Source: a virus. From it: a stretch of DNA of 64,000 nucleotides. The notes beneath the pieces are model-generated. The model saw only the letters and a list, made by a program, of their open reading frames with translations, did not search any database and was not told the origin of the DNA. The stretch's first letter is position 1. The number at the start of each line of letters is the position of its first letter. Location: UHGV virus genome UHGV-1963645; one strand, written 5' to 3'. The translations under genes were made by a program, and so were the position numbers. Shown in pieces: positions 35,408 to 35,996 of the stretch.

Positions 35408-35830
35408 ATGTCATTCTTTTCTACGTTAAAAACAGCTTTGTCTTTGAAGGAGAAACTTGCTGCTACTGGTGTTCTTGTTCTGATTTGCGCACTTGTTGGT
35501 GCTGGGTTTGCATGGGAACGTCATCAGCTAAAGCAAGCCATCGAGAAAATTGGCAGTCTTGATCAGGCTGTTAAGGAACGTGATAAGTCAATAATGGATC
35601 TTAACCAGACCATTGAGACGATGAACAAAGCAGAGCAACATTTTCACAGCCAGGAAGTGAAAAATGAATCAGAACAAGCCAAATATGCTGACAGGCAAAT
35701 GGAACGAAAAGCTGAAGTTCAGAAACAACTGGTTGCGGCGGGTAATGTTCGCCAGCGCATTCCTGCTGACACTCAGCGGTTGCTCCGGGAGTCGATCAGC
35801 GAATTTAACGCCGACGCCGACAAAGGTTAA
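35408..35830 (+). CDS. ppfA: Rz-like inner-membrane spanin candidate
   Basis: N-terminal TM helix (GVLVLICALVGAGFAW) followed by coiled-coil periplasmic domain; RBS AGGAGG upstream. Confidence 0.5.
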   Translation: MSFFSTLKTALSLKEKLAATGVLVLICALVGAGFAWERHQLKQAIEKIGSLDQAVKERDKSIMDLNQTIETMNKAEQHFHSQEVKNESEQAKYADRQMERKAEVQKQLVAAGNVRQRIPADTQRLLRESISEFNADADKG

Positions 35831-35996
35831 CCACCCTGCCCCCAAAAGTGCATTTATGTGCAGGATGCCAGAGTTTAGCAGTGAATATTTTGATGATCTG
35901 CCAGCCTATATCCTTGATACAGAAACGATGCTGATGGGGATTAACAGGAAGAATCGCAACGTTAATGATTACAACCGCGCTATCAGCGGTAACTAA
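35745..35996 (+). CDS. mlp: Rz1-like outer-membrane lipoprotein spanin candidate, overlapping ppfA out of frame
   Basis: Lipobox LLTLSGC followed by Pro/Thr-rich segment TPTPTKVNHPAP; starts inside ppfA in another frame and extends past its stop. Confidence 0.5.
   Translation: MFASAFLLTLSGCSGSRSANLTPTPTKVNHPAPKSAFMCRMPEFSSEYFDDLPAYILDTETMLMGINRKNRNVNDYNRAISGN

Follow-up and report, generated by a model that had tools for sequence, protein, structure and literature searches.

Is an overlapping gene pair with the layout of a two-component spanin indeed a spanin locus when it lies away from the other genes of lysis, and to which known pair does it belong? We address this question for ppfA and mlp, which are read from the + strand at 35408-35996 of the virus genome UHGV-1963645; the whole stretch of 64,000 nucleotides that was analysed is referred to as the window. 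The initial annotation, made from the letters alone, had described a two-component spanin of the overlapped type, far from any lysis cassette. We find that the two genes are the pair already predicted as the spanin of phage P1 and hence not new, and that the distance from the lysis genes is real but is a documented peculiarity of P1.

Results

The upstream gene, ppfA (35408-35830, +), is an open reading frame with an ATG start that encodes a predicted i-spanin of 140 aa, a type II membrane protein, and it is preceded by a Shine-Dalgarno sequence, AGGAGG (35397-35402, +), which was read from the sequence and is the same site as in SpaninDB. An N-terminal transmembrane helix had been claimed for PpfA and is readily found, given that residues 17-35, LAATGVLVLICALVGAGFA (codons at 35456-35512, +), form the best 19-residue Kyte-Doolittle window of the protein, with a mean of 2.35. 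The only cysteine, C27, lies inside this membrane helix and the periplasmic part has none, while 36% of the other 104 residues are charged. The coiled coil that was said to follow the helix is borne out in part. Between 75 and 88% of the heptad a/d positions are hydrophobic in 28-residue windows starting at residues 21-55, and this heptad-like hydrophobic spacing extends from the membrane helix to about residue 80, which is the first part of the periplasmic helix. An AlphaFold2 model (18 homologues, mean pLDDT 69) has two helices, at residues 13-110 and 120-138, separated by a break at 111-119 (AGNVRQRIP), and thereby fits the helix-hinge-helix plan described for i-spanins (PMC6139136). The membrane helix, the long periplasmic helix and the heptad spacing are thus in place, and the helices may well associate as a coiled coil. 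An i-spanin is defined as a small type II protein that has a single membrane helix near the N-terminus and a periplasmic domain of helical structure (Summer 2007, Kongari 2018), and PpfA has each of these features. It also matches phrog_89, ‘Rz-like spanin’, over nearly its full length (E=5e-25). In a profile search of the family against 1.84 billion representatives we obtained 34 hits, of which only three (P0221, P0228 and P0235) are distant and full length, all of them matching spanin PHROGs, so the family proper is a narrow one, practically limited to P1-like elements, and the search yielded no further lead on function.

The second gene, mlp (35664-35996, +), begins inside ppfA in a different frame, as the initial annotation had it. 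It has an ATG start and encodes a predicted outer-membrane lipoprotein, the putative o-spanin, with a precursor of 110 aa and a mature form of 71 aa. The overlap of 167 nt (35664-35830, +) is read in two frames, as residues 86-140 of PpfA and as the signal peptide plus the first 16 mature residues of Mlp, and because mlp runs past the end of ppfA the pair belongs to the overlapped class among embedded, overlapped and adjacent spanin genes. The Shine-Dalgarno sequence of mlp, AGGAAG (35652-35657, +), was likewise read from the sequence, is listed in SpaninDB and lies within the ppfA codons Q-E-V. Both lipoprotein features that had been proposed are present: LLTLSGC occupies residues 34-40, in which a pattern match places the lipobox L-S-G-C at residues 37-40 (35772-35783, +) with Cys40 as the predicted lipid-attachment site, and the Pro/Thr-rich segment, LTPTPTKVNHPAP, occupies residues 48-60. 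The mature protein starts CSGSRSANLTPTPTKVNHPAP, its +2 residue is Ser, which is not an inner-membrane retention signal, and it contains one more cysteine at residue 66. In silico, Mlp has the signal peptide, the lipobox and the +2 residue other than Asp that are expected of an o-spanin. Cys66 is kept in all relatives and is aligned with a cysteine of P2 LysC; at least one periplasmic cysteine for an intermolecular disulfide is present in 507 of the 528 known spanin pairs (Kongari 2018, PMC6139136). The protein matches phrog_30284 at E=2e-77.

The nearest relative of the 1.5 kb around ppfA and mlp is Escherichia phage RCS47, at 99.1% identity, followed by P1, P7, SJ46 and other Punavirus records at 96-98%. 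With larger queries, the top matches along the window are RCS47, JL22, vB_EcoM-Ro157c2YLVW and P1, and a blast map against the whole P1 genome is collinear in reversed orientation, from about 93.2 kb to 37.1 kb of P1, broken at the regions in which P1-like phage-plasmids are known to vary. The window is a phage-plasmid of this kind. PpfA is identical to P1 PpfA at 140 of 140 residues, and Mlp to P1 Mlp at 108 of 110 (98%), the two substitutions (S7N and V32A) both falling within the signal peptide; RCS47 Mlp is 100% identical to the protein of the window. With near-identical proteins at the same genomic position, and flanks that are collinear with NC_005856 at 98.5% DNA identity, the genes are orthologues of P1 ppfA (gp064) and mlp (gp063), which occupy 63354-63942 of that record with the same overlap, upfC and upfB upstream, upfA downstream and the plasmid origin adjoining. 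In contrast to P1, the replicon next to the pair is not P1's own, with a RepA of 294 aa and other iterons.

Several other stretches of the window also depart from P1. The replicon (36528-38788) carries a RepA with Rep3 domains, five iterons of 21-22 bp (TTGACTnnnCGCGAT...) at about 36553-36655 and a T5orf172-like open reading frame of 269 aa (37912-38721), an arrangement shared with an E. coli contig (L012). Adjoining pacB, at the place of P1 c1, lies a second immunity-type module (365-1191) with a C4 antisense RNA (890-977, -), an isrK-like RNA (1022-1100, -), DNA that is 70% identical to P1 icd/ant1 (365-805) and, on the minus strand, a site resembling the C1 operator that starts at 1191; the regular C4/isrK module occupies 51045-51255. 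A sok antitoxin RNA of the hok/sok type (47413-47587, -; 97 bits) falls within DNA that P1 lacks (46691-47882, in the rlfA/rlfB/pmgF variable region), so the element seems to carry one more addiction module in addition to the region that matches P1 phd/doc. The pmgT-pmgV variable region includes 5.4 kb absent from P1 (8203-13599), with about ten minus-strand open reading frames of unknown function, and a 25-kb query containing this stretch also matches several hundred records of Stx-converting phages. At 27876-28920 (-), a lipoprotein of 275 aa (...LCLTGC, phrog_200) and a membrane protein of 78 aa (phrog_1130, ‘moron’) replace part of the P1 tciA/upl region.

For the P1 genes, the overlapped two-component reading proposed here is the accepted one, in the literature, in RefSeq and GenBank labels and in the PHROG lysis families. 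They have been listed as a predicted spanin pair since 2007 (Summer 2007, as cited in PMC9025707), and Bednarek et al. 2022 describe them as the predicted P1 spanin genes and place them in an operon that lies apart from the remaining lysis genes (PMC9025707). The labels of o-spanin and i-spanin are swapped in the text of that paper; by sequence features and SpaninDB, PpfA is the i-spanin and Mlp the o-spanin. In the SpaninDB supplement of Kongari et al. 2018 (PMC6139136), P1 is of class ‘ovl’, with gp064 as overlapped i-spanin (140 aa, 104 of them periplasmic, 0 periplasmic Cys, ‘one in TMD’) and gp063 as overlapped o-spanin (110 aa, 71 of them mature, a 39-residue signal commented as ‘Too long signal sequence’, 1 periplasmic Cys), and the LipoP cleavage site given there at the 39th position agrees with the lipobox at Cys40. 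The P1 RefSeq record names mlp ‘Rz-like spanin’, with an older note ‘possibly involved in regulation of lysis (by homology)’, and in several GenBank records the two genes carry the names Rz and Rz1. A comparison of 77 P1-like phage-plasmids by Zhang et al. 2022 places mlp and ppfA in a set of 21 extremely conserved genes (PMC9603915). The 589-bp locus is present in 656 PLSDB plasmids, nearly full length in 610 of them, mostly from Escherichia and Salmonella.

We used five diverged loci to follow both reading frames: Cronobacter phage JK004 (L006), three contigs of about 59-91 kb (L009-L011, among them a Klebsiella aerogenes and a Salmonella contig) and the closer E. coli contig L012. PpfA is 59-64% identical in the distant clade. 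The mlp frame, +1 relative to ppfA, is uninterrupted in all five loci: it begins at a first ATG that is conserved, stops in the same region and encodes a protein 66-68% identical to Mlp. The core LLASAFLLTL, CSGSQSANLTPTP, FMCRMPE, Cys+1 and Cys66 are kept, and the lipobox reads LSGC, LSAC, LNAC or LNGC, the last of which is already recorded as a deviant o-spanin lipobox (PMC6139136). The PpfA residues QEV/QEA over the Shine-Dalgarno sequence of mlp are also kept. Since the first ATG is conserved in the distant clade and the ATGs of Met8 and Met28 are not, the signal peptide of 39 residues is taken to be real. In the non-overlapping part of mlp (52 codons), 23-26 of the 37-44 nucleotide differences fall on codon position 3, and 17-24 codon changes are synonymous versus 8-12 non-synonymous. 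Within the overlap, most substitutions affect position 2 of the mlp codons, equivalent to position 3 of ppfA, and this concentration indicates that ppfA is the more constrained frame there, with the n-region of the Mlp signal peptide absorbing change. Taken over relatives of 59-68% identity, both frames are kept open and are under purifying selection.

These patterns bear on the possibility that ppfA is the sole gene and the mlp frame an accident, which would fit the many records that skip mlp or call only a C-terminal fragment of 44-52 aa. However, the full frame, its start codon, the lipobox and both cysteines are retained at the identities given above, the substitutions outside the overlap are mostly synonymous, and Mlp shows homology to P2 LysC. 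The conservation data already contradict an accidental frame, and we give it practically no weight.

Gene calling at these loci is uneven. In JK004 (L006 5260-5592), L010 and L011 (4260-4589), the annotation contains only the C-terminal 44-52 aa of mlp, and in L009 (4260-4589) no gene is called at the mlp frame. Mlp clusters in the protein collection are mostly fragments, and in most PLSDB plasmids the locus is annotated as ‘hypothetical protein’. With mlp missed or truncated in most public records of P1-like plasmids, annotation pipelines should add the overlapped gene.

PpfA and Mlp were compared with CHARACTERISED spanins by Pfam, BLASTP, NCBIfam, hhalign and PHROG. Neither protein matches the Pfam models Rz (PF03245), Rz1 (PF06085) or LysC (PF23793), and for Rz and Rz1 there is no match even at E<=1; as controls, lambda Rz and Rz1 score 183 and 72 bits, and P2 LysC strongly matches its own model. 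Lambda Rz and Rz1 were also considered as relatives and rejected, the BLASTP values of E=0.27 and 0.007 being not significant and a Pfam match lacking. The best NCBIfam matches are both to the P2 type: LysB TIGR03495 for PpfA (18.2 bits, E=0.0023, below the curated cut-off of 92.75 bits) and LysC NF038368 for Mlp (14.3 bits, below the curated cut-off of 27 bits).

The relation to P2 is clearer for the lipoprotein. By BLASTP, Mlp and P2 LysC are 37% identical over 68 residues (E=5e-8) that cover the signal peptide core, the lipobox, the Pro-rich stretch and the second cysteine, and the profile of the Mlp relatives aligns to P2 LysC in hhalign with 93% probability (E=3e-7). The PHROG matches are reciprocal, given that Mlp finds phrog_456, the family of LysC, at 4e-5 and LysC finds phrog_30284, the family of Mlp, at 5e-4. 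Homology of Mlp to P2 LysC is supported by these comparisons. P2 LysB falls into phrog_89 at 6e-61, the same family as PpfA, and against LysB profiles hhalign gives PpfA 49% over 53 columns. This profile match alone is no proof of homology, because the alignment is limited to the membrane helix and the beginning of the first periplasmic helix; a remote homology of PpfA and LysB is plausible.

The initial annotation recognized no holin or endolysin gene in the window, and our searches agree. The six P1 proteins Lyz and LydA-E gave no match in the 64 kb by blastn or tblastn, and the ten largest open reading frames of the non-P1 stretches matched no lysis PHROG. A position in or next to a lysis cassette is usual for spanin genes, not obligatory, and ppfA and mlp do not have it. 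The lysis genes of P1 lie in three places, lyz-lydD-lydE at 20.0-20.9 kb, lydC-lydA-lydB at 30.4-31.5 kb and ppfA-mlp at 63.4-63.9 kb, and the window ends within the tail-fibre gene S, a few kb before lydC. The window thus has no holin or endolysin gene because P1 scatters its lysis genes and the other two places fall outside.

The upstream neighbours of the pair are virion genes. Directly upstream, upfC and upfB (34287-35368, +) encode the tail-spike tip and the baseplate ‘tripod’ and end 39 nt before ppfA. UpfC has a PAAR motif, and a 2026 cryo-EM study of P1 places UpfC at the spike tip and UpfB, the ‘tripod’, in the baseplate (PMC12810830). With its annotated start (34523), upfB shares 49 nt with upfC; translation probably begins instead at 34580, where an ATG follows the upfC stop with AGGAG upstream, and the PHROG alignment begins at residue 20. 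Downstream, upfA (36008-36400, +; phrog_1453, function unknown) starts 11 nt past the mlp stop and is the last gene of the cluster. In the clade of about 60% identity, a Gp49-family gene takes its place in L010 and L011, and no gene is called there in L009. A terminator-like hairpin followed by TTTATT (36412-36438, +; fold -13.8 kcal/mol, z = -3.2) lies after upfA and before the plasmid origin, and upstream of 36412 no terminator-like site was found on the + strand of the upfC-upfA cluster. A C1 repressor operator, the equivalent of Odmt/Op68 (34189-34205, -), has one mismatch to the consensus, lies in the divergent uhr-upfC region and is annotated in P1.

All five genes from upfC to upfA are on one strand with gaps of <=39 nt. 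A scan for the P1 late promoter (AAGTKACTW, 3-5 nt, TANNNT) on the + strand of 33900-35700 with <=2 mismatches found none, and the same scan recovers sites matching LP23, LPs, LP26 and LPpac elsewhere in the window. A simple consensus scan also found no strong sigma-70 promoter upstream of upfC, upfB or ppfA; the promoters predicted for ppfA in the P1 record, all of the sigma-70 type, are too weak to register in such a scan. From this layout we infer that upfC to upfA are probably transcribed as one unit during lytic growth. The spanin genes would then ride at the end of a small morphogenetic unit, by analogy with P2 lysB and lysC among the tail genes.

The strand and tight spacing that ppfA and mlp share with upfC and upfB, genes of the membrane-piercing P1 tail tip (PMC12810830), could instead mean that their products act with UpfC and UpfB at entry, in envelope penetration or DNA delivery, and not at exit. 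Yet PpfA and Mlp are not among the virion proteins identified by cryo-EM, and neither name occurs in that paper (PMC12810830). A lipoprotein signal peptide and a type II anchor target the membranes of the producing cell and not virions, and P2 lysB and lysC are likewise embedded among tail genes. A role at entry is therefore very improbable.

Discussion

Taking gene structure, topology, conservation and family relations together, we consider it highly probable that ppfA and mlp act as the two-component spanin of a P1-type phage-plasmid. PpfA would sit in the inner membrane by its one N-terminal helix, with about 104 mostly helical residues reaching into the periplasm, and Mlp would be exported, lipid-modified at Cys40, processed by signal peptidase II and delivered to the outer membrane. 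We infer that the two proteins join by their periplasmic ends and form a bridge across the periplasm that is threaded through the mesh of the cell wall. Mlp probably dimerizes through a disulfide at Cys66, because PpfA has no periplasmic cysteine. Late in infection, the P1 holins (LydA, LydC and LydD) and the endolysin Lyz would strip the cell wall, whereupon the complexes could move and collapse, and this collapse would fuse the inner and outer membranes and finish lysis.

Several observations count against the spanin reading, namely the plating of P1 under CRISPRi, the late promoter that was not found, the signal of 39 residues, the family scores below cut-off and the 49% of the LysB profile. 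In the genome-wide CRISPRi study of P1, plating efficiencies were 1.3/1.2 for ppfA and 0.24/0.19 for mlp, so that plating was not prevented and both genes count as non-essential, whereas lambda Rz came out of the same screen as essential (PMC10695390). Because millimolar divalent cations are usually needed for a spanin defect to show (PMC9025707), we regard the plating results as weak evidence against a spanin.

The same results would also suit prophage envelope proteins with a role outside lysis, such as phage exclusion, host benefit or plasmid maintenance, whose likeness to spanins is topological only. The genes adjoin the plasmid origin and repA, only sigma-70 promoters are predicted for ppfA in the P1 record and a late promoter was not found, knock-down causes no plating defect (PMC10695390), and temperate phages do carry such lipoprotein genes, for example lambda bor beside Rz/Rz1. 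However, Mlp is a homologue of LysC, the o-spanin of P2, down to the conserved second cysteine, PpfA falls into the PHROG of LysB, and the overlapped i-spanin/o-spanin layout is that of P2. Moreover, the same-strand genes upstream are for virion parts and not for lysogeny, and the predicted sigma-70 promoters fail the simple consensus scan. Hence, we find a non-lysis envelope role unlikely.

There is also a small chance, which we rate no higher, that the P1-type pair is not the working or the only disruptor of the outer membrane, that P1 uses another route and that the role of PpfA and Mlp is different or conditional. This reading arises because the genes have no late promoter of their own, lie behind tail-tip genes by the plasmid origin, encode a long conserved signal peptide and can be knocked down with plating retained. 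If it were true, the role of PpfA and Mlp could be, for example, specific to certain hosts or growth conditions, as has been found for the P1 holins.

Under the favoured spanin reading, the pair can be set beside three known systems. Lambda Rz/Rz1 shares the predicted roles and the topology: a type II inner-membrane protein whose periplasmic domain is helical, together with a lipoprotein of the outer membrane read in the +1 frame. However, lambda Rz1 is wholly embedded in Rz whereas ppfA and mlp merely overlap, mature lambda Rz1 is a proline-rich protein of 40 aa whereas mature Mlp has 71 aa with 6 Pro, and Rz/Rz1 lies inside the lysis cassette whereas ppfA/mlp does not. PseT.3/PseT.2 of T4 is a spanin pair that likewise lies away from the holin and endolysin genes of its phage (PMC6139136). 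As with PpfA, the T4 i-spanin has no periplasmic cysteine and the disulfide chemistry rests on the o-spanin (PMC6139136), although PseT.2 has two essential cysteines and Mlp has one beyond the lipid-attachment cysteine, and the T4 genes are separate whereas ppfA and mlp overlap; the comparison of these two pairs is one of architecture.

The pair LysB/LysC of P2 differs from PpfA/Mlp in that it directly follows holin Y, endolysin K and lysA whereas the pair of the window is unlinked to any lysis gene, in that LysB has two conserved periplasmic cysteines (C120 and C126) and PpfA none, and in the signal peptide of Mlp, which at 39 residues is about 20 longer than that of LysC. The layout is nevertheless the same (NC_001895 7922-8492), with a lipoprotein gene that begins inside the membrane-protein gene and extends past its end, and we treat PpfA and Mlp as putative remote relatives of the P2 type and not as members of the curated LysB and LysC families.
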